Assembly (NCBI GenBank): GCA_049889275.1
Contig: JBMHDS010000129.1
Coordinates: 28,751 to 92,750 of the forward strand
Source: Bradymonadia bacterium
Lineage (GTDB): Bacteria > Myxococcota_A > Bradymonadia > UBA7976 > UBA1532
Length of the DNA stretch: 64,000 nucleotides
Direction of reading: 5' to 3'
The number at the start of each line of letters is the position of its first letter. The first letter of the stretch is position 1. This document shows positions 54,636-63,936 of the stretch, piece after piece. Made by a program: the position numbers and the translations under genes. The notes under the pieces were generated by a model. The model was not told the DNA's origin. It ran no database searches and saw only the letters and a program-made list of their open reading frames with translations.

Positions 54636-56525
54636 GTGTTCAACGGAAAGAGCGAATTGAAGAGTCTAAGACGGTCCATAGCGATGCTGACGCTCTCGTG
54701 CGTCGTCAGCGGTTGCGGTGACGAGCGGCCAAACAACTCGGTAGACGGCTCAATGGTTTCGGCGCTCGATGCGGCCACGCTCAATGACGCAGCCATCATC
54801 GAGGACGCGACGCCTCGAGACCAAACCACCATAGATGCAAATTTGGTTGATGTAGCTTTCGATGCTGATGTAAACGACGCTGAGCCACTCGACGCGCAAA
54901 GGGATGCAGCGCGCCCGATGGATTACCGGGTCGTCGACGACCCCAACACACTATCAAGTGACGAAGTGTTCGCTTGTGATTCGACACGTCAACGCACCAC
55001 ACCGAGCCGTCTATGGCGGCTCACTTCGAAGCAATATCGCAGACTGGTCAGCCAAGTCGTCGGGGTCAGATTTAGCCGTCTAGATACAAGTAACCCGTTC
55101 GACGGCCTCAGCTCGGGCAATCAATTTACGGCGTTGGCCGACGATTTCGGCATGGATGCCCCGACCTTCGATCTGCTCCGCCAAAATGCAAGAGCCATCT
55201 CCGACCAGCTAACTCAACCGGCCGGTCGCTTACCAGCCTGCATTCACGACCCGGAGGTACGCGCGTCGGTTGAATGCCAGCGGGCAGTACTCGACCAGGT
55301 CGCCCTTGAGCTTTGGCGGCGACCTTTGGCGGAAGATGAGGCCGTACGCTACCTCGAGATGGCAGAGCGGCAGAGCGATGAGCTGTCACCACTGGACATT
55401 ATCGCTGTACTCGTGGAAGCGATGGCACTCTCGCCCAACGCCTACTTCAGAGCCGAGCTCGGCGCGGAGCAAGCCGACGAGACAGGTCGCCATCGGCTTA
55501 CAGACCATGAAATCGCCGATGCGCTGTCTTTCGGGATTCTCGATGGACCTCCAGACGATATTTTGCGACTTGCGGCGAGCGAAGGGCGTCTGTCGGCGCC
55601 CGACGCCATCGCAGCGCAAGTCAGGCGACTCTTGTCAGCGAGAGAAGAGCGGCGTGCAATCCCACGTTTTTTTCAGGAGCTACTCGGCTACACAAAGGCG
55701 GTGAATGTCTTTAAGGATCCGGAAGTGTATCCCGACCTCGACATCGCCAGCATCGTGCGCTCTGCCGATCATACCATCGACTACCTTGTCAGACGCGGCG
55801 GTGACTCTCTGCGGCGCTTATTGACATCAACCGTTTTTGTGCCCGATTTACCGCTCTCATGTGAGACCTGTTTCGACGCCGAAGAGCTCGGTGCCCCCGG
55901 CACACCCACACGACAAGACCCAACCATTCGAGCGGGCCTTCTCACCCACCCTGCCTGGTTGATCGCACACTCGCGTAACGATGAGACCGATCCAGTCGGT
56001 CGAGGCAAATTTATCCGAGAAGCGCTGCTGTGCCAATCCGTCCCCGACGTACCCATCGACGTCATCCAACAGCTCCCATCCCCCGACGAATTCGAAACGA
56101 TGCGAGAACGGCTAGAGCAGCATAGCGCGCCGCAATGCGCTGGATGCCACCAATTGATGGATCCTCTCGGCCTCGCTTTCGAGACATACGACCATGTGGG
56201 GATCATGCAGGGGGGTCCGAACAGCCCCATCGATACAAATGCCATCTTGGTCGGCAGCGGTGACACCGACGGACCTGTGGCCGACGCCTTGGAGTTGACG
56301 CGCAGGCTCGCAGATTCTCGCGCCGTACAGCTTTGCCTGACTCGCGCTGCGTTTCGGTTTTTCATGGGCCGAAATGAACAGTTGGGTGATGGCTGTACGC
56401 TGACAGACGTTCAGACACAAGTGGATGAGGCAGGGGGCGACTTTAGCCAACTTCTGACCGCTTTGTTCGCATCCGACACCTTTTTGTATCGGCACCCGCA
56501 TGTAGACCGAGGGGATATGCCATGA
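54636..56525 (+). CDS. DUF1592/DUF1588-family protein (partner of DUF1501)
   Basis: Conserved Cys pair 'CAGCHQLMDPLGLAFETYDHVG' typical of the DUF1588 region. Signal/lipobox 'LSCVVSGCG'. Its stop overlaps the DUF1501 start (ATGA). Confidence 0.6.
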   Translation: MFNGKSELKSLRRSIAMLTLSCVVSGCGDERPNNSVDGSMVSALDAATLNDAAIIEDATPRDQTTIDANLVDVAFDADVNDAEPLDAQRDAARPMDYRVVDDPNTLSSDEVFACDSTRQRTTPSRLWRLTSKQYRRLVSQVVGVRFSRLDTSNPFDGLSSGNQFTALADDFGMDAPTFDLLRQNARAISDQLTQPAGRLPACIHDPEVRASVECQRAVLDQVALELWRRPLAEDEAVRYLEMAERQSDELSPLDIIAVLVEAMALSPNAYFRAELGAEQADETGRHRLTDHEIADALSFGILDGPPDDILRLAASEGRLSAPDAIAAQVRRLLSAREERRAIPRFFQELLGYTKAVNVFKDPEVYPDLDIASIVRSADHTIDYLVRRGGDSLRRLLTSTVFVPDLPLSCETCFDAEELGAPGTPTRQDPTIRAGLLTHPAWLIAHSRNDETDPVGRGKFIREALLCQSVPDVPIDVIQQLPSPDEFETMRERLEQHSAPQCAGCHQLMDPLGLAFETYDHVGIMQGGPNSPIDTNAILVGSGDTDGPVADALELTRRLADSRAVQLCLTRAAFRFFMGRNEQLGDGCTLTDVQTQVDEAGGDFSQLLTALFASDTFLYRHPHVDRGDMP

Positions 56526-57862
56526 AGATGAACCGCAGGCGATTTACACAGACGCTGGCAGGTGGCGTCGTTGGCGCCACAAGTCTTGCCAGTCTCACGA
56601 TGAAGGACGCCCTCGCTTGTGGCGATATCCTCCAACCCAAGCGGGTCATCTTCGTTATCGAAGGCTGCGGTATGAACTACACACGATTCACACCCAGCGA
56701 CATACCGAATCAAGCCGCCGGCGAATATCTCGAGGTAAGCAATTTCTCGCTCTCCCCCATGATGAATCAGCTGGCACGGCATCAAGACAAGCTGGTCTTG
56801 ATCGATGGTCTGTCAAATGACCAAGGACTCGCCGGCAGTGGTCACTCAACAGCCTATGCCGCGCTGTCATGCGTACCCAATGATCCCCCCAATGAAACGG
56901 GGCGACCGGGCGGAGAGACCATCGACATGTTTCTTGGGCGAGCCATGGGGCATTGCGTCCCTTTTCCAAATCTACTGCTCGCGGCGGGCCAGACCAATGC
57001 GGCACGCCTAACGGCGATCTCAGCAACGTCAGACCGACGTCCTGTGCCTCATTTTTGCAACCCGGGTGATGCCTTTGACCAACTCTTTGGCACGGTCGCA
57101 TCGGTGGAAAACCGTAGCTTGGCTCGAAAAAGAGCTGTCTTCGAGTTGGTCCGAGGTGATCTTGAGCGCCTGGGCGCGCGCCTCACTGGCCGTCAACGAG
57201 AGAAACTCGATGCGATCACCCGGTCCATTGATGCCATCGACGCGCGCGATGCAGCGCTGACGGCGAGAGCGGATGAACTCCAGGCGTGCGTGGCAGAGCT
57301 TACCCGGCCCACCTTCGACGGGCCCGAGGAGCAGCTCGATGCGCACTTCAAAGTCGCATCCGCAGCGCTCGCATGTGATCTCACACGGGTGGTCACCATT
57401 GCGTCAGGTTGCGGATTTAACTTTCTCGATATGAGCTTTCCTGGCCTTGGTTTGTCAGGTACGAAACACGCGATGGGCCACGGATATGCCGGTGGACTCG
57501 ATGCCCTCGATATGATTCACAATTTTCACGCGGGTTTAATCGCTGATCTTTGCGATCGACTACAGGCGATTCCGGAGGGTAACGGCTCTATGCTCGATCA
57601 CACCCTGATCGTTTGGACCAATGAGAATGGCGAACAACATCACGCCGGCTATCAGCGTTGGCCGGTGGTTTTACTCGCAGGCGATGGCATCGGCATCCAG
57701 CGAGGTCGATATATTCGCTACCCGGCCAAAGGCTTCGCGGGCGCACGAACACTCGCCGATTTCTGGAATAGTCTCTGCCACCTCGCAGGCGTGCCACGCA
57801 ATGATTTTGGCGCGCAGGGGCGCGAAATGGTCACCGGCCCCCTCGAGAGCCTCTTGGCCTAA
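56522..57862 (+). CDS. DUF1501-family protein with twin-arginine signal (sulfatase-like fold)
   Basis: Tat motif 'NRRRFTQTLAGGVVGATSLASL'. Family-typical 'LVLIDGLSND', 'LIVWTNENGEQHHAG'. Confidence 0.8.
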   Translation: MKMNRRRFTQTLAGGVVGATSLASLTMKDALACGDILQPKRVIFVIEGCGMNYTRFTPSDIPNQAAGEYLEVSNFSLSPMMNQLARHQDKLVLIDGLSNDQGLAGSGHSTAYAALSCVPNDPPNETGRPGGETIDMFLGRAMGHCVPFPNLLLAAGQTNAARLTAISATSDRRPVPHFCNPGDAFDQLFGTVASVENRSLARKRAVFELVRGDLERLGARLTGRQREKLDAITRSIDAIDARDAALTARADELQACVAELTRPTFDGPEEQLDAHFKVASAALACDLTRVVTIASGCGFNFLDMSFPGLGLSGTKHAMGHGYAGGLDALDMIHNFHAGLIADLCDRLQAIPEGNGSMLDHTLIVWTNENGEQHHAGYQRWPVVLLAGDGIGIQRGRYIRYPAKGFAGARTLADFWNSLCHLAGVPRNDFGAQGREMVTGPLESLLA

Positions 57863-58742
57863 GCAGTAGCAGGCATGCGAAGAGCAGACCAAGAGATGAC
57901 TTGGGTGCGCTCTGACACCCCTGCCAGCTGACTCGTTTGTTGCGCTCTGCGCCATCTGTCGCGTCCATCTGTGGACGGCTATCTGAGTTCACGGAATCTG
58001 CATCCAAGGGCACACGTCCATCGGCGCCATCTCTGTTCACCATCGCGTCGCCCACCGCTTGGTCATCCACGGCCTGTGAGGCGTCCTCCGGCATCGCCTG
58101 GTCTGCCCGCAGAGACAGGTCTCGCAACCCCACTGAAGCCATATCCTCTGGACTGGCTCGTTGATCTAATTCGACTTGAGCATCCATTGGCATGGCCATG
58201 TCCATCGGTACAGCTGCATCGGGCGCGGGGACCGTAATACATCCATCTTGATCGATACGACAGTCATTCAGACATCGCAGCTCACCCTCTGAGAAACCAA
58301 GGGTCATACATGTTCGGCCACCGAAATCATCTCCGTCGCACGCTTCATCACCTTGAATCATGCCATCACCGCATTGGTCCGGGTCGCGTCCGTCGGCGGG
58401 GTTGGTTACCGGCTGTCTTGGCAGCGCTTGTCCCGGCCGCCATAAGCAGTCGGGGTCAGCCAACTCATCGCCATTGGTCAGCCCATCAGCGTCTGAATCG
58501 AGACCACAAATCCCCGCCTCTGGATCGTCATCCCGTGCCCAGACGCCCCGACTCAGGCCGAAATCGATGCCGAAACCAGTACGAAGATTACGATTTTGTG
58601 GATCGAGGTGGCAGGTCTCACAACCAAACTGTGTCGGCACGCGATTGACATAGGCGGGTCTGCTGTAAGCGAGCGAGGTCCATGCACAGATACTCAGACC
58701 AAGGCCTGCAGTAAACAGCCTCATGAATTGCCTGTGGTCCAT
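57831..58742 (-). CDS. secreted protein with single CxxCH haem-c motif, TSP3-like Ca-binding motif and MYXO-CTERM-like tail
   Basis: Signal 'LGLSICAWTSLAYS'. 'FGCETCHLD' (CxxCH). 'DSDADGLTNGDELADPDC'. C-terminus 'GCQSAPKSSLGLLFACLLLLRPRGSRGGR'. Confidence 0.5.
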   Translation of the reverse strand: MDHRQFMRLFTAGLGLSICAWTSLAYSRPAYVNRVPTQFGCETCHLDPQNRNLRTGFGIDFGLSRGVWARDDDPEAGICGLDSDADGLTNGDELADPDCLWRPGQALPRQPVTNPADGRDPDQCGDGMIQGDEACDGDDFGGRTCMTLGFSEGELRCLNDCRIDQDGCITVPAPDAAVPMDMAMPMDAQVELDQRASPEDMASVGLRDLSLRADQAMPEDASQAVDDQAVGDAMVNRDGADGRVPLDADSVNSDSRPQMDATDGAERNKRVSWQGCQSAPKSSLGLLFACLLLLRPRGSRGGR

Positions 58743-58858
58743 TTCCCCTCACCTCCAAGAATCGGACAATGAAATGATTAAGCGCATCTTCAGAAACTTT
58801 CGTTGTGATCCGCGCTCGACATGTCCAATATAGAGCAAATCGTTAATTGGAGCACCCT

Positions 58859-60424
58859 ATGAAGCGTCTCATCTTTTGTTCTCTTGCACTGGTATTGGCC
58901 CTTGGATGCGGGTCTGATTCCGACCCAGGCATCGGTGGTGCAGGTGGCACGGGTGGTACAGCAGGCACCGGTGGCACGGGTGGTAGCGCGGGCACGGGTG
59001 GCACTGTCGGCGGCGAAGACTGTAACGGCGTCGACGACGACGGTGATGGTGCAATCGACGAGGGCGTCGGTACGCGGGTGTGTATGTCGGCATGCGGTAC
59101 GGGTAATGAAGTTTGCCAAAATGGCGCGTGGGGCGGCTGTGACGCACCACCGGTGGTCGAAGAATTCTGTGATGGCGCCGATAACGATTGCGATGGCCAG
59201 ATCGATGAGGCGCTCACGCGCACATGCTCGTCGGACTGTGGCGACGGCTCTGAGAGCTGCATGAACGGTGATTGGGTCGGATGTGACGCACCGCTCGGCG
59301 ACGCTGAGAGTTGCGATGGTGCGGATAATGACTGCGACGGTCGCGTCGACGAGAACGTTTATCAGACCTGTACAGTGGCATGCGGTGAGGACAGTGAGAT
59401 CGAAGGCACTGAGGTGTGCGTGAACGGTACCTTTCAGGACTGTAGTGTCGTAGGTATCCCGGAGGAGACCTGTGGCAACGGCATGGACGATGACTGCGAC
59501 GACGCGGTAGACGAGGGCTGTGGCTGCCAGGCCGGCGACACCAAGCCTTGTTCGTCGGATGTGGGCGCTTGCAGCCGAGGCACCCAGACGTGTGATGAGG
59601 CGGGCGAGTGGGGGCCGTGTCTAGACGACAATGGCGACGCTGTACTTTCGCCGGGCGAACAACCGGAGGACTGTAATGGCATCGACGATGACTGTAACGG
59701 ACGCGTCGACGACCTAGAGCTCAACATGCCCTGCTCAAGCGATGTAGGCGCGTGCGTCATGGGTCAACTGACATGTGAGAACGGCGTACGGGCATGCGTC
59801 GGCGGTGTCGAGCCATCGGAAGAGACCTGTGATGCCATCGACAATGACTGCGATGGCACAGTGGACGAAAACACCGTACCCGCGCCTGAGGCCTGTGATG
59901 GCCGCGATAACGATTGTGACGAGCGCGTCGACGAAGATGTGGCCCCTGACCAGTGGGAGGGTGACAACGGCAATCAAGTCTGTGCTGGTGCTTACGAACT
60001 CGGTGAGATCCAAGAGGATGAAGAAAACCCAGCGTCTTTTGTCGGCCAGATTCAGAACGGTGCCGATACCGATACATATCATTTCGTCGTCAACGAACGA
60101 ACCCGGGTCGGCATCAACGGAAATGACATCACCGTCAGGGTTGAGTTGACTGAGGCAGACCCAAACCTCGAGTGGACGATGTGTGTTCGACTGTTGAGTC
60201 AAGATTCGGCCATAAACCCCTTTGCCGGTGCACCGGATCTAGAGGAGGCATGTGGAGTCGAGGAACAGTGCGTCGATGTCGTCAATGGCATTGGCACTTT
60301 TCAGCAAGTTGTGACCGATCGGAATGCGCGGAGCGATGATACCCGAGTGGTTGTCAAAATCAGTGCACCCCAAGCCGCAGCCTGCGCTCCTTATCGCATC
60401 ACGTACGATGCGGACGCGCCGTAG
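58859..60424 (+). CDS. secreted lipoprotein with seven MopE-like putative metal-binding repeats (CxGxDxDCDGxxDE) and C-terminal PPC-like domain
   Basis: Lipobox 'LVLALGCGSD'. Repeats 'CNGVDDDGDGAIDEG', 'CDGADNDCDGQIDEA', 'CDGADNDCDGRVDEN', 'CGNGMDDDCDDAVDEGC', 'CNGIDDDCNGRVDD', 'CDAIDNDCDGTVDEN', 'CDGRDNDCDERVDED'. C-terminal 'DTDTYHFVV'. ATG 58859 with SD 'GGAG'. Confidence 0.65.
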   Translation: MKRLIFCSLALVLALGCGSDSDPGIGGAGGTGGTAGTGGTGGSAGTGGTVGGEDCNGVDDDGDGAIDEGVGTRVCMSACGTGNEVCQNGAWGGCDAPPVVEEFCDGADNDCDGQIDEALTRTCSSDCGDGSESCMNGDWVGCDAPLGDAESCDGADNDCDGRVDENVYQTCTVACGEDSEIEGTEVCVNGTFQDCSVVGIPEETCGNGMDDDCDDAVDEGCGCQAGDTKPCSSDVGACSRGTQTCDEAGEWGPCLDDNGDAVLSPGEQPEDCNGIDDDCNGRVDDLELNMPCSSDVGACVMGQLTCENGVRACVGGVEPSEETCDAIDNDCDGTVDENTVPAPEACDGRDNDCDERVDEDVAPDQWEGDNGNQVCAGAYELGEIQEDEENPASFVGQIQNGADTDTYHFVVNERTRVGINGNDITVRVELTEADPNLEWTMCVRLLSQDSAINPFAGAPDLEEACGVEEQCVDVVNGIGTFQQVVTDRNARSDDTRVVVKISAPQAAACAPYRITYDADAP

Positions 60425-60660
60425 CGCTGTCCCGCGGGAGGCGGCTGCTCAAACAGATCGGTTCCTTCTCACTCGATACGAACGACCAGAGACGACCACT
60501 CTTGGTCGTTCGACACACGCCGACCGCATCAACTCCACACCGCCAACCTGACCATCCGCTACGAGCGTTCATGTCAAGTCGGAGTCATCCACCATATTTC
60601 TCTCGTTGAGACTGGACCCACGGTCGTGTGCGGTGCCCGCCACGGCTCGTTTGAATCCAC

Positions 60661-60690
60661 TTGACCCATACCCCATAGGGGTATTATTGT
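60661..60690 (+). promoter_or_regulatory. sigma70-like promoter (TTGACC -35; TATTAT / TATTGT -10) with CsoR-box-like palindrome ATACCCC-ATA-GGGGTAT (60668..60684) in the spacer
   Basis: Read directly. AT-rich island 27 nt upstream of the GTG at 60717. The palindrome closely matches the GC-rich pseudopalindromes (ATACCCnnnGGGTAT type) that I recall as CsoR operators. Confidence 0.45.
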
Positions 60691-60716
60691 CAGATGAATT
60701 TATTGGATAACTAACC

Positions 60717-61370
60717 GTGTTTTACCCCGCTCGTCACAAAGCGCTCTCTACGTTGGTTCTCGTCTGCTCGGTGCTCATACCGCACGCTGGTTCAGCACAT
60801 CCTGTGACCTTTGAAGATGGCATTGCGTTCTCAGGCATTTTTCAACCGGGCGCAGTTCTGCTCGAAGGCGGCTACACGTTATCGCGCCACGTCGCAGTCG
60901 GTAGCACGTATACACGAATACAAACAAAAGACGGCGAGGTTCACGGTGGGTTTGCACACGCGAATTTGCTGGCCTACCGATATAACGGAGATGGCAGTCA
61001 AGGCAATGTATATGCCATCGCCGGTGGTGGAGGGGGACAATACCGCGGTCAAGATAACACTGGTCTCGGTTATGCAGCACTTCAACTCGATTACGAGACC
61101 ATCCGTTTCTACAACGCGTTTATGGCCCGCGCGATCACAGATCTCGACGAACACACCTATCGGGCCACATACCGCATTGGCTTCGCCCCCTATGCGGCCC
61201 CGTATAATAGCCTCCAGTCTTGGCTGGTTGCGCAAACCATGTACATGCCGCAAATGGACGATGAATGGAATTATTCGGTGCTGCTACGGTTCTTTTACAA
61301 AACGGTCCTTTGGGAAATCGGTGGTGACCTTAAGGGGCGCCCCTGGATTCAGCTCATGGTGCATTATTAG
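60717..61370 (+). CDS. hypothetical outer-membrane beta-barrel protein (first gene of the metal operon)
   Basis: GTG start. Signal 'LVLVCSVLIPHAGSA'. Alternating hydrophobic beta-strand pattern. Aromatic C-terminus '...WIQLMVHY'. Confidence 0.5.
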   Translation: MFYPARHKALSTLVLVCSVLIPHAGSAHPVTFEDGIAFSGIFQPGAVLLEGGYTLSRHVAVGSTYTRIQTKDGEVHGGFAHANLLAYRYNGDGSQGNVYAIAGGGGGQYRGQDNTGLGYAALQLDYETIRFYNAFMARAITDLDEHTYRATYRIGFAPYAAPYNSLQSWLVAQTMYMPQMDDEWNYSVLLRFFYKTVLWEIGGDLKGRPWIQLMVHY

Positions 61371-61378
61371 GAGGCCAA

Positions 61379-61732
61379 ATGTTGCAACTTAAGTTTATCG
61401 GCTTCGTGCTTTTATCCGTCTTGCTTTCACCGACGATCCCCCAGGCTGCAGAGTCGGCGGCGAGCATTCGTGTCAAAGTAAAAGGCATGGTCTGTTCGTT
61501 CTGCGTACAAGGCGTGGAGAAGAAACTACTCGGCATAGATGGCGTCAAGAAGGTCACCGTCAATCTCGAGACCAAGACGGTTGAGATATGGCTCCACCAA
61601 GGTAAAACGGTTGCCGATGCGCAGATCAAGGACGCGATCGAATCAGCTGGCTACAATATCGCCACGATCACTCGGCCAGGTGAGACCACACCCAAAGCCC
61701 CTCAAGCGCCCCCGGTAGGAGAGCGAGGTTGA
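61379..61732 (+). CDS. merP: periplasmic heavy-metal-associated (HMA) domain protein, MerP-like
   Basis: Signal peptide followed by 'VKVKGMVCSFCVQGVEKKL' (GMxCxxC ferredoxin-like HMA fold). Length 117 aa. Overlaps the merT start by 4 nt. Confidence 0.75.
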   Translation: MLQLKFIGFVLLSVLLSPTIPQAAESAASIRVKVKGMVCSFCVQGVEKKLLGIDGVKKVTVNLETKTVEIWLHQGKTVADAQIKDAIESAGYNIATITRPGETTPKAPQAPPVGERG

Positions 61733-62094
61733 ACCGGGTTGTCGCCTTCGCCGCGCTGTTTACGTCTGTCGGCACATTATTCTGTTGTGCATTGCCGGCG
61801 CTCTTCGTGCTCTTGGGCGCGGGGGCAACCTTCGCATCGCTCACCAATGCGGTGCCAGGCATACTCCTCTTTGGCGAATATAAGACCGCTGTGTTCATCA
61901 GCGCAGGCATCTGTCTCGGTTATGGCTGGTTTTCTCAGCGCGAGGCGAGCGCGAATGTGACGTGTGACATTGAAACAAACGGTGAGACGGCGTGTGCGAC
62001 GACTCAAACCTGGATACGACCCTTGCTCATTGTTGCCAGTATCATGTATCTGATCGGGTTAAGCTTCGCTTATGTGCTGCCGTACTTCATGTGA
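61729..62094 (+). CDS. merT: MerT-family inner-membrane metal transporter
   Basis: First-TM 'LFCCALPALFVLLGAG' Cys pair. Cytoplasmic-loop Cys pair 'VTCDIETNGETAC'. C-terminal 'FAYVLPYFM'. Three TMs, 121 aa. Collinear with MerT of Tn501 as I recall it. Confidence 0.8.
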   Translation: MNRVVAFAALFTSVGTLFCCALPALFVLLGAGATFASLTNAVPGILLFGEYKTAVFISAGICLGYGWFSQREASANVTCDIETNGETACATTQTWIRPLLIVASIMYLIGLSFAYVLPYFM

Positions 62095-62107
62095 GGGTAA
62101 TTGAGCT

Positions 62108-62389
62108 GTGTCCAAACATCCTGACCACTCCGCTAATCTGAACCGTATTCGCCGAATTAAGGGTCAAATGGACGGCATTGAGCGTATGATCATCGAAGGT
62201 CGATACTGTCCCGACATCCTCACGCAGACCAGCGCGGTCGCGGCTGCGCTGAGAGGCTTGGAGCGTAGACTGCTCGAACGCCACCTGGCCCATTGCGTCA
62301 CCAATGCTTTCGAGGGTGACAATCAGGAGGAGCGCGAACAGAAGATAAGTGAGCTGCTTCAAATTTTTGAGAAACGTCTCGCTAAGTAG
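62108..62389 (+). CDS. csoR: CsoR/RcnR-family metal-sensing transcriptional repressor (x-C-H-C fingerprint, CsoR-like)
   Basis: 'NRIRRIKGQMDGIERMIIEGRYCPDILTQTSAVAAALRGL' with the alpha2 Cys in 'RYCPD', then 'HLAHCV' (His and Cys four apart). GTG start 9 nt after 'GAGGG'. Confidence 0.8.
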   Translation: MSKHPDHSANLNRIRRIKGQMDGIERMIIEGRYCPDILTQTSAVAAALRGLERRLLERHLAHCVTNAFEGDNQEEREQKISELLQIFEKRLAK

Positions 62390-62661
62390 CGCCACGGACC
62401 CCCGCCACAGACCACCGAGGTCAAGCGCCTGGATCTCATCTTAAAACCGGCACTCGTTCCATCATCTCAATCGCGGGCAAACCAATATCGAGAGAGATTG
62501 AAAACGGCGCTGACAATGACAGCCCCTCCGGTCTGGCTCGCCGCGCAGCCGGATGAACTCGGAAGAAATAGGGCCGGTCGAGCGTGGCGTGAGCACAGCG
62601 ATGGTGGTGCTTCGCCTAAGGCAGTCTGATAGACTGATGAAGGTGTCGTCTTAAGGCAAAC

Positions 62662-63936
62662 TCAGGGTTCGTAGACGTTATCGTCTTCACCGGTCACCAG
62701 GACCAACTGATCGTCGGCGATGTTGGCGAAGATTTCGTCATAGGTCAGCGGCTTATCTGGGTTTGACAATGCGTCCACCATGGCCATGCTAGCCTCGGTC
62801 ATGTCCCGAAAGTAAGCGGGCATGGCGTTGGTCACCAGATCGACATAGCGGGTACCAATCGGGTCGTCGGGGTTCACCTCACGGTGCGCTGCGTACAGGG
62901 CGTCGTCGACGTATGCGTAAGTATCACAACCGTTCATGAAGACGATGACGTACTGCTCCGCCACCCAATCGCCCCTTGAGGCGAGGGCCTTTATGTTACG
63001 CCCAAGTCCGGCATGACCGTTGTAGATGATCAGGTCGGCTGTAGGCGTCAGGCTCCGATAGCGCTCTTGGAAGTCAGACCCGGCGGTCCGGACATTGTCG
63101 ACAACCAATACTGTGACCGAGATTTTGCGCTCATCATCCAGTTGCCCTTCGATGTGCATGTCGGTGATATCAACACCAAGATTACCTTCGTATTCAGCGG
63201 GTGTACTGACAGCGTTTGGAACAACGTTCTCGATCTTGCGGATGAAATTCCTAAAGTTGCGGGTGCCGATGTCGGTGTCGGCTGGTTTGTCCTCGCTCGC
63301 TCGACCGAAGATGGCGACCACCTCGAGACGTCCATCTTTCCACACATCGTCATATTCTGGATATTTCCCAGATGTTTGCAGCGTGCTCGGCGCAACGGAT
63401 GCCACAGTCTTCATCACGTCAATCTCATCGAGTTTACAAAAGGTCATGCCCGGTCGGTAATAGTACCACATGCTGCCCGAGTCGACATCGTGCGCGCTGT
63501 AAGACACACAGTCCTTTCCGTACTTCTCAGCAAAGCGCGTGAGGTCCTGGTAGCGCGTGCTGATAGGCAGTACGAACTCATACGTCTCTGGCACAGGGCT
63601 CGTCTTGCCCCAGGCCACGGGCATGGTCACCGTGTAATCAAACCGATAATCACCGTCGATCTTCTCAATCTCCAAATCGGTGACTTCCACTTTGTCTAGG
63701 CGACCGACCGCGTTGTTCCCGTTGAGCTGCCCGATGGTGTAGAGCAATTGCTGCTCGATAGTCCGCTCAGGATTCCAGTCGTTACTTGCATAGAGCACAC
63801 CGTCGAAGGTCATGTCGACAAACGTGGCATGAAAGCTCGACTCTTTCTCCTCGATGTTGGATTCGGGTGTCTCGAGTTGATTACATCCGGCCAAGAAGGC
63901 CGAGAAGAGTGCAGCAAGAATGACGGTGTTCTTCAT
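62662..63936 (-). CDS. hypothetical lipoprotein with caspase-fold-like His/Cys dyad (possible C11/C25-type cysteine peptidase)
   Basis: Lipobox 'LFSAFLAGCNQ'. 'IIYNGHAGLG' followed ~35 aa later by 'VIVFMNGCDTYAY', the spacing and context typical of caspase/gingipain catalytic His and Cys. Start at the internal ATG ('MKNTVIL'). Confidence 0.5.
   Translation of the reverse strand: MKNTVILAALFSAFLAGCNQLETPESNIEEKESSFHATFVDMTFDGVLYASNDWNPERTIEQQLLYTIGQLNGNNAVGRLDKVEVTDLEIEKIDGDYRFDYTVTMPVAWGKTSPVPETYEFVLPISTRYQDLTRFAEKYGKDCVSYSAHDVDSGSMWYYYRPGMTFCKLDEIDVMKTVASVAPSTLQTSGKYPEYDDVWKDGRLEVVAIFGRASEDKPADTDIGTRNFRNFIRKIENVVPNAVSTPAEYEGNLGVDITDMHIEGQLDDERKISVTVLVVDNVRTAGSDFQERYRSLTPTADLIIYNGHAGLGRNIKALASRGDWVAEQYVIVFMNGCDTYAYVDDALYAAHREVNPDDPIGTRYVDLVTNAMPAYFRDMTEASMAMVDALSNPDKPLTYDEIFANIADDQLVLVTGEDDNVYEP

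Follow-up and report, generated by a model that had tools for sequence, protein, structure and literature searches.

A compact four-gene operon with a predicted CsoR operator

Within a 64,000-nucleotide stretch of DNA from a Bradymonadia bacterium (contig JBMHDS010000129.1; this whole stretch is called the window), we analysed four open reading frames (ORFs) that lie tightly packed on the forward strand behind a TTGACC -35 hexamer, with intergenic gaps of 8, -4 and 13 nt (Table 1). They encode a predicted outer-membrane beta-barrel, a secreted protein with an HMA domain, a small MerT-like membrane protein and a CsoR-family repressor; the MerT-like gene starts with TTG and overlaps the TGA of the preceding HMA gene by 4 nt. 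An earlier interpretation made from the letters alone (the sequence-only reading) had described such a cluster of overlapping or closely spaced genes, and it is present as described.

Table 1 Coordinates of the operon and its promoter elements in the window.
Feature	Position	Strand	Basis
-35 hexamer TTGACC	60661-60666	+	sequence reading and promoter scan
Predicted CsoR operator ATACCCCATAGGGGTAT, TAC-N9-GTA type	60668-60684	none	
Candidate -10, overlapping the operator: TATTAT or TATTGT	60682-60687 or 60685-60690	+	consensus match alone
Predicted outer-membrane 12-stranded beta-barrel, 217 amino acids, signal peptide, mature from His28, C-terminus ...M-V-H-Y, unnamed family	60717-61370	+	
Predicted periplasmic HMA protein, 117 amino acids, signal peptide, GMVCSFC	61379-61732	+	PF00403
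MerT-like predicted inner-membrane protein, 121 amino acids, three helices, C19-C20 in helix 1, C79/C89 in the loop between helices 2 and 3	61729-62094	+	
CsoR-family repressor, 93 amino acids, C34, H59, C63, Y33, E82	62108-62389	+	PF02583

Predicted products of the three envelope genes

The first gene belongs to a barrel family found in neither Pfam nor NCBIfam, which comprises 782 clusters at 50% identity, nearly all of 200-220 amino acids. The structure prediction was confident (predicted local distance difference test, pLDDT, 89) and gave a 12-stranded antiparallel barrel with a signal peptide and a C-terminal aromatic residue (...MVHY), in agreement with the outer-membrane beta-barrel proposed by the sequence-only reading. 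Its fold resembles that of small 12-stranded outer-membrane channels (KdgM/NanC, COG4313 type), the likeness being one of fold only; a relationship to PcoB/CopB was considered and rejected, the similarity being that of barrels in general.

The two ends of the mature barrel are conserved together. His28, the first mature residue (A/HPV; 60798-60800), and the penultimate His216 (M-x-H-aromatic; 61362-61364) are each His in 87% of 136 diverse barrels, and they co-vary: both were His in 114 barrels, neither in 12, and the mixed states occurred five times each (counts not corrected for kinship), with Arg or Lys at position 28 pairing with Glu, Gln or Asn at position 216. This co-variation implies that the chain ends are in contact at the periplasmic rim, where the two histidines together with Met214 could form a copper hand-off site or a mere latch. 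The idea of a strict histidine-brace copper site at the mature N-terminus was weakened by the replacement of His28 in 17 of the 136 barrels, mostly by Arg or Lys and usually with Glu, Gln or Asn at 216.

The second product contains an HMA domain (PF00403, E = 2.7e-12) with the motif GMVCSFC behind an N-terminal signal segment. The label MerP, previously attached to it, is right in so far as this is a secreted HMA protein with GMxCxxC, but MerP identity did not hold: the CopZ models of NCBIfam (61.2 bits, cut-off 91) outscored MerP TIGR02052 (36.8 bits, cut-off 92.55), all of these scores being sub-threshold.

The third product had no Pfam hit, PF02411 included, and matched the NCBIfam MerT model weakly (E values of 1e-4 to 1e-2; 16.1 bits against a cut-off of 150). 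Its family spans at least 109 database clusters, whose members carry the source name 'hypothetical protein', with two distant ones labelled 'mercuric ion transport protein' by the Joint Genome Institute (JGI). Among 40 homologues, C19-C20-A-x-P (P23) in helix 1 and C79 and C89 in the second loop are invariant, and 11 of them reached PF02411 at E < 1 (best E 1.7e-7). An hhalign comparison of the family profile with Tn501 MerT, the sequence of which was checked against an annotated plasmid merT, produced an end-to-end alignment of 96 columns with CC on CC (E = 2.6e-5, 75% probability). In the AlphaFold model (pLDDT 76) helix 1 is broken at C20-P23 and is followed by two more long helices, and since most homologues have a loop 2 with many Lys and Arg residues, the second Cys pair would lie in the cytoplasm, as in MerT. 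The three helices and both Cys pairs of the MerT homologue announced by the sequence-only reading were thus recovered, the protein itself gave no PF02411 match, and the data suggest a remote relative within the MerT superfamily that has the same architecture and is not an orthologue.

Foldseek found nothing significant for this model in the PDB, a profile search of PDB sequences with the protein returned chance matches only, and no similarity to DsbD/CcdA or thioredoxin folds was detected. These searches bear on a redox explanation, in which the MerT-like protein would deliver cytoplasmic reducing equivalents that keep the CxxC of the HMA protein reduced under copper stress, as in the ScsB/ScsC or DsbD/CcdA pathways, while the HMA protein would merely sequester Cu(I) and the barrel would let copper out. 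A membrane Cys pair combined with a cytoplasmic one would suit such a function, as would the tendency of a periplasmic CxxC protein to oxidise, and CcdA was the only other Foldseek match of the model, at a non-significant E of 8.4. This explanation is nevertheless improbable in our judgement, given the undetectable similarity to the folds named above, the probable relatedness of the family to MerT, and the chemistry of a vicinal Cys-Cys, typical of soft-metal ligands and ill suited to a redox disulfide.

A conserved barrel–HMA–MerT-like cassette in other genomes

A scan of one genome per species identified relatives of the MerT-like protein at no fewer than 553 loci, and the cassette counts given here refer to the best 80 of these. 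The HMA gene lies directly upstream of the MerT-like gene in 78 of them, and barrel, HMA and MerT-like genes are all present, in this order and on a single strand, in 74, so the arrangement in the window, for which the sequence-only reading had advised a synteny check in related genomes, is not a one-off. In the HMA proteins of the 80 loci, G-[ML]-V-C-x-F-C is likewise conserved, together with the signal segment at the N-terminus. The hosts include Bdellovibrionota (with cultured Bdellovibrio), Alpha-, Beta- and Gammaproteobacteria, Pelagibacterales, Methylophilaceae and Rickettsiales, as well as Verrucomicrobiota, Marinimicrobia, Campylobacterales and Myxococcota, and complete genomes such as OZ248397.1 and NZ_CP168974.1 are among the carriers. 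Past the immediate neighbours the flanking genes are unrelated between loci, and the three genes therefore behave like a self-contained unit. The barrel–HMA–MerT-like combination is thus a conserved and widespread cassette, of which the window holds one regulatory version.

In many proteobacterial loci a fourth gene lies directly upstream of the barrel gene (L049 4492-4902, L014 4561-4935, L063 1548-1904 and L008 4625-4978 are examples). It encodes a secreted protein of 110-135 amino acids with Cys/His motifs (e.g. HCEGxCxC) and the ending ...RPPI, KPPI or PPPK, has no Pfam match and is absent from the window. Identity of this four-gene version with the gold-induced gigPABT of Cupriavidus and Legionella was ruled out, gig being a bufferin cluster (DUF2282/MNIO/DUF2063/DoxX).

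The regulator and its predicted operator

The fourth gene product belongs to the CsoR family, scoring 94.8 bits with PF02583 (E = 4.3e-27; the cut-off is 22.8 bits), and among the NCBIfam models the copper sensor RicR ranks first. Of the solved structures, two Cu(I)-CsoRs come closest, 4M1P from Geobacillus and 4ADZ from Streptomyces lividans, and RYC...ERH..HC could be aligned with them residue by residue; C34, H59 and C63, the x-C-H-C fingerprint by which the sequence-only reading had recognised a CsoR-like regulator, line up with the ligands of the CsoRs 4M1P, 4ADZ and 2HH7. Y33 and E82 match the second-shell pair of Cu(I)-CsoR established for the Mycobacterium tuberculosis protein, and both ligand and second-shell residues are conserved among the CsoRs linked to the cassette elsewhere. 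Sensors of the CstR type lack the His ligand. The profile search and the closest solved relatives bear out the earlier family assignment, and the alignments show a regulator that is, as predicted from these residues, a CsoR of the Cu(I)-sensing type. The cassette-linked CsoRs also have in common an N-terminal M-x-x-H-P-D-H-S motif (62108-62130 in the window; H4 and H7), which, by analogy with InrS or RcnR, could add a His ligand.

The DNA upstream of the first gene reads cTTGACCcATACCCCATAGGGGTATTATTGT. The promoter scan joined TTGACC to TATTGT across an 18-nt spacer, TATTAT being the alternative -10, and with either candidate the spacer is occupied by a palindrome (arms ATACCCC and GGGGTAT around ATA), so that hexamer and palindrome were both found as the sequence-only reading had placed them. 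This 17-nt palindrome is the sole match to ATACCCCNNNGGGGTAT in the 64 kb when up to two mismatches are permitted, the expectation from shuffled sequences being 0.03. Its resemblance to Cu(I)-CsoR operators, which the sequence-only reading had put forward, proved to be an identity in one case: the palindrome equals the CsoR-box pattern of Corynebacterium glutamicum, quoted as ATACCCCnnnGGGGTAT in PMC5057107. Its TAC-CCCATAGGG-GTA frame (60669-60683) further satisfies the TAC-N9-GTA rule of S. lividans, the frame needed for binding within the streptomycete CsoR consensus ATATACCCCTNAGGGGTATAT (PMC3902906). In Rfam, no RNA family matched positions 60000-63000.

The palindrome is the predicted CsoR operator of this operon, and the strongest evidence that it is a working CsoR site is that operator and regulator co-vary across phyla. 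A box of the TAC-N9-GTA type with C and G tracts precedes the barrel gene in 11 of 14 loci with csoR alongside and in none of 56 others (Fisher p = 1.7e-10), and the three csoR-adjacent loci counted as box-negative carry close variants of the box. In csoR-linked relatives, including those from other lineages, the box usually stands directly 3' of a TTGAC hexamer, as it does in the window.

Copper-linked regulators and neighbours of the cassette

CsoR-family genes made up 16 of 150 immediate-neighbour ORFs, and other loci carry regulators of other families. An extracytoplasmic function (ECF) sigma factor adjoins the cassette in 13-16 loci, mainly from Bdellovibrio, usually together with a multi-pass membrane protein. 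A CueR-like MerR regulator with a CPGDDxxxCP loop adjoins it in L020, a Pelagibacterales metagenome-assembled genome (MAG), as well as in several MAGs of Alphaproteobacteria and Rickettsiales, and in an Oligoflexia MAG (L011) the cassette has another CueR-like gene some 3.6 kb upstream of it. Further recurrent neighbours were multicopper oxidases, CopA-type ATPases, a CusA-type pump, a cupredoxin and a DUF326 Cys-rich protein. A copper-related function is supported by this company of CsoR and CueR-like regulators, multicopper oxidases and CopA or Cus genes, and the recruitment of three unrelated sensor types (CsoR, CueR and ECF sigma) argues strongly, on comparative grounds, for a role in coinage-metal stress.

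Several of these loci have features of their own. In Bdellovibrio-type loci (3910-5034 in L070, a Bdellovibrio bacteriovorus locus, and 13-16 others) the ECF sigma factor and the multi-pass, Cys-containing membrane protein are divergent from the cassette, and the latter, which has no Pfam family, is possibly an anti-sigma factor. In L003, L006 (4531-11341) and L007, a multicopper oxidase, a csoR and a CopA-type ATPase follow the cassette on the same strand. In the Pelagibacterales-type loci L020 (~925-965) and L030 (~985-1025), where the CueR-like gene is divergent, a TTGAC hexamer is followed by a 19-nt spacer with the dyad CCTTAACGTAAGG and a -10; a dyad in a long promoter spacer is the layout of MerR-type activation. 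Three loci from alphaproteobacterial and Rickettsiales MAGs (L025 4613-5683, L059 3090-4181 and L061 4069-5124) have a single ORF that joins a MerR/CueR-like domain, a signal-like segment and the barrel. These fused ORFs retain the full helix-turn-helix, the dimerisation helix and the Cys loop, and those of L059 and L061 have no Met between the CueR-like part and the barrel; a membrane-tethered CueR from which signal peptidase cuts off the barrel is possible, as is an internal non-canonical start of the barrel.

Genes for MerA, MerR and P-type ATPases were sought in the window and beyond. Neither a MerA-type class-I disulfide-reductase motif nor the DKTGT of P-type ATPases occurs in any frame of the 64 kb, and the ten large ORFs that were tested include neither an ATPase nor a reductase. 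On L083, a longer contig whose genes are identical, the DNA continues for 4.5 kb beyond csoR and encodes no reductase there, its proteins being without such domains, and a MerR is present neither in the window nor in these 4.5 kb. The sequence-only reading had noted that MerA, MerR and P-type ATPase are missing, with which the motif scan, the ORF tests and the L083 extension agree; a mer reductase just beyond the window, which it had named as one of the findings that would speak against its view, did not appear in the 4.5 kb past csoR. The neighbour census of the 80 loci encountered no MerA or other reductase either.

These results weigh on the explanation that the operon takes up mercury or some other substrate than copper, with a reductase or partner encoded elsewhere in the genome, or with a regulator that senses persulfide (as CstR does) or Ni/Co (as InrS and RcnR do). 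Such an explanation could draw on the MerT-like features of the membrane protein, on the retention of H4-P-D-H7 in cassette-linked CsoRs as a possible source of an extra His ligand, and on InrS being the third-best solved relative of the regulator. It is opposed by the absence of MerA and MerR from the regions just described, by the presence of His59 (which CstR lacks) along with Y33 and E82, by the CueR-type sensors in other lineages and by RicR as best NCBIfam match, and we regard it as very improbable.

A proposed thiol relay and its direction

We propose that the window carries a self-regulated, Cu(I)-inducible operon for an envelope-spanning thiol relay, to which we assign a probability of about 0.6; the more general statement that this is a Cu(I)-induced metal-trafficking cassette is likely to be correct. 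The metal binding, the relay and the derepression by Cu(I) that we infer would proceed as follows. When Cu(I) is lacking, tetrameric CsoR would sit on the TAC-N9-GTA box between -35 and -10 and block RNA polymerase. A rise in cytoplasmic Cu(I) would fill the C34/H59/C63 site and release CsoR from the DNA, so that all four genes, csoR included, would be transcribed. The 12-stranded barrel would act as an outer-membrane channel joining periplasm and exterior, the secreted CopZ-like HMA protein would hold a soft monovalent metal (Cu(I), possibly Ag(I) or Au(I)) through its CxxC, and the MerT-like protein would move the metal by ligand exchange between the CC pair in the membrane and the cytoplasmic Cys pair.

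The direction of the proposed relay is the less certain part. Transport from periplasm to cytoplasm, argued by analogy with every characterised MerT relative, is given slightly less than even odds; the metal would then be handed on to cytoplasmic buffers and pumps, and a role in uptake for sequestration, as the sequence-only reading had envisaged, is a guess. Import is favoured by the remote homology to MerT, the lack of an energy module and the cytoplasmic Cys pair, while induction by excess metal, the obligatory outer-membrane channel and the linkage to oxidase and efflux genes favour export. Roles besides import, export and redox support share what is left of the probability.

In the export version Cu(I) would pass, without ATP, from the cytoplasmic Cys pair to the membrane CC, the HMA protein, the His/His/Met rim of the barrel and the outside, drawn by Cu(I) oxidation outside the cytoplasm, either by oxygen or by a multicopper oxidase. 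It would follow the logic of resistance systems, all three regulator types turning the cassette on at high metal, and would give a purpose to a dedicated outer-membrane channel (the barrel is kept in 74 of the 80 loci) that sets the cassette apart from mer operons. A multicopper oxidase directly after the cassette in some loci and CopA or CusA neighbours in others fit this version too, as do the Pelagibacterales MAG contigs L020 and L030 with cassette and divergent CueR-like gene and a 1.3-Mb Methylophilaceae genome (L062) with a cassette that lacks an adjacent regulator; in such small genomes the cassette might be a main copper defence. Several points speak against it: to our knowledge all characterised MerT-family proteins import, an energy-coupling domain is absent, the membrane potential works against cation efflux, and free cytoplasmic Cu(I) at the set-point of the sensor is far below outside levels. 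On balance we consider export unlikely, and a shade more so the bolder form in which an ATP-independent trans-envelope Cu(I) export relay, wired to CsoR, CueR or ECF sigma, would be the principal copper defence in many Gram-negative lineages, Pelagibacterales and Methylophilaceae among them.

Our preferred reading of a Cu(I)-inducible thiol relay, with the metal moving inwards, has to be held against several observations. About half of the 80 loci have no recognisable adjacent regulator. The MerT-like protein stays below the MerT thresholds of Pfam and NCBIfam, so that the case for the relay is built on conserved cysteines and a distant homology. In some barrels His28/His216 are swapped for Arg/Glu, which suits a structural latch equally well. 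Finally, copper import under copper excess looks counter-productive, and the canonical mer systems known to us need no outer-membrane protein; both of these points favour export.

Relation to known systems

Like MerT/MerP of Tn501 and Tn21, the cassette places the gene of a secreted GMxCxxC HMA protein beside that of a three-helix membrane protein of about 120 amino acids, with overlapping reading frames, and it shares with MerT the CC-x-x-P in helix 1, a second Cys pair in the helix 2-3 loop and an alignment over the full length. In contrast to mer, the HMA gene precedes the MerT-like gene, MerR, MerA and MerD are missing, a barrel gene is attached, the regulators are those of copper or metal stress, and the scores fall far under the family cut-offs of MerT and MerP; the cysteines of the second pair are spaced C-x9-C here and C-x5-C in Tn501 MerT. 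With the CsoR-regulated copZA operons of B. subtilis, S. lividans, C. glutamicum and G. thermodenitrificans the operon has in common a C-H-C repressor, a TAC-N9-GTA operator with G/C tracts over the promoter and an HMA product, but the operon of the window, whose host is a Gram-negative member of the Bradymonadia, has a small MerT-like transporter in place of the P1B ATPase, a secreted HMA protein and a co-regulated outer-membrane protein. Its outer-membrane beta-barrel in a copper-responsive cluster, sometimes beside a multicopper oxidase, recalls PcoB/CopB of pco/cop. The predicted copper induction of inner-membrane, periplasmic-carrier and outer-membrane components recalls CusCFBA with CusF, from which the cassette differs in having no resistance-nodulation-division (RND) pump, membrane-fusion protein or TolC-like channel, in using thiols instead of Met/His clusters and in showing no evident energy source.

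In the searchable literature, which included the text of a 2024 metallostasis review and left subscription-only papers outside its coverage, we found no description of the cassette, in line with the earlier claim of an undescribed arrangement. The parts are of known kinds (CsoR, HMA, MerT superfamily, 12-stranded barrel), and it is their conserved combination and the copper wiring that appear to be undescribed. Copper handling in the Gram-negative envelope is today explained by P1B ATPases, Cus-type RND pumps, multicopper oxidases and Pco/Cop proteins. The cassette is a compact three-gene unit free of ATPase and RND components, built from a thiol protein resembling a mercury transporter and a barrel family without a profile model, and it is carried by at least 553 species-level genomes, with abundant marine and freshwater lineages as well as cultured Bdellovibrio among its hosts. 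If our proposal is true, bacterial copper homeostasis would gain a component of a new class and the MerT fold would not be mercury-specific; culturable Bdellovibrio carriers and easy expression in E. coli make the question directly testable.

Base composition, mobility and neighbouring genes

The GC content of the cassette is 53.3%, against 56.6% for the window, which puts it in the lowest 1% of equal-sized windows; the range of these is narrow (53.0-61.7%), and the DNA to the right of the cassette is likewise at 52-56%. The lower GC content reported by the sequence-only reading is thus real though weak, and a dip of this kind gives little support to the horizontal acquisition that had been suggested from it. 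Among barrel homologues that carry a source name, the closest (55-72% identity) belong to MAGs of Bradymonadia, Myxococcales and Myxococcota, the same lineage as the window, and there is a Bradymonadia MAG protein with 100% identity to the window itself. With so slight a dip and the nearest barrel homologues in the same lineage, recent transfer is not supported. Over longer times, the patchy distribution and variable contexts of the cassette do indicate mobility. A plasmid collection with RefSeq annotation gave six weak matches to the MerT-like protein, labelled 'hypothetical' or HMA fusion, and none to the barrel; the cassette shows no sign of plasmid carriage there.

To the left of the operon, a gene pair on the forward strand (54636-57862) carries DUF1592, DUF1588 and DUF1585 (PSCyt/PSD domains) and HXXSHH (DUF1552), a pairing of unknown function that is common in planctomycetes and myxobacteria. 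It is followed by a reverse-strand gene with a Temptin_C-type domain (57831-58742), divergent from the gene directly upstream of the cassette (58847-60424, forward strand), which encodes a 525-amino-acid lipoprotein-like product with six MopE-type 'putative metal-binding' Cys/Asp repeats (PF11617, E = 9e-23). At 60479-60512, 55 nt past the stop of this gene, lies a perfect 10-nt inverted repeat without a T run, CGAACGACCA-N14-TGGTCGTTCG, which is probably the terminator hairpin of the upstream gene and would mark the left boundary of the operon.

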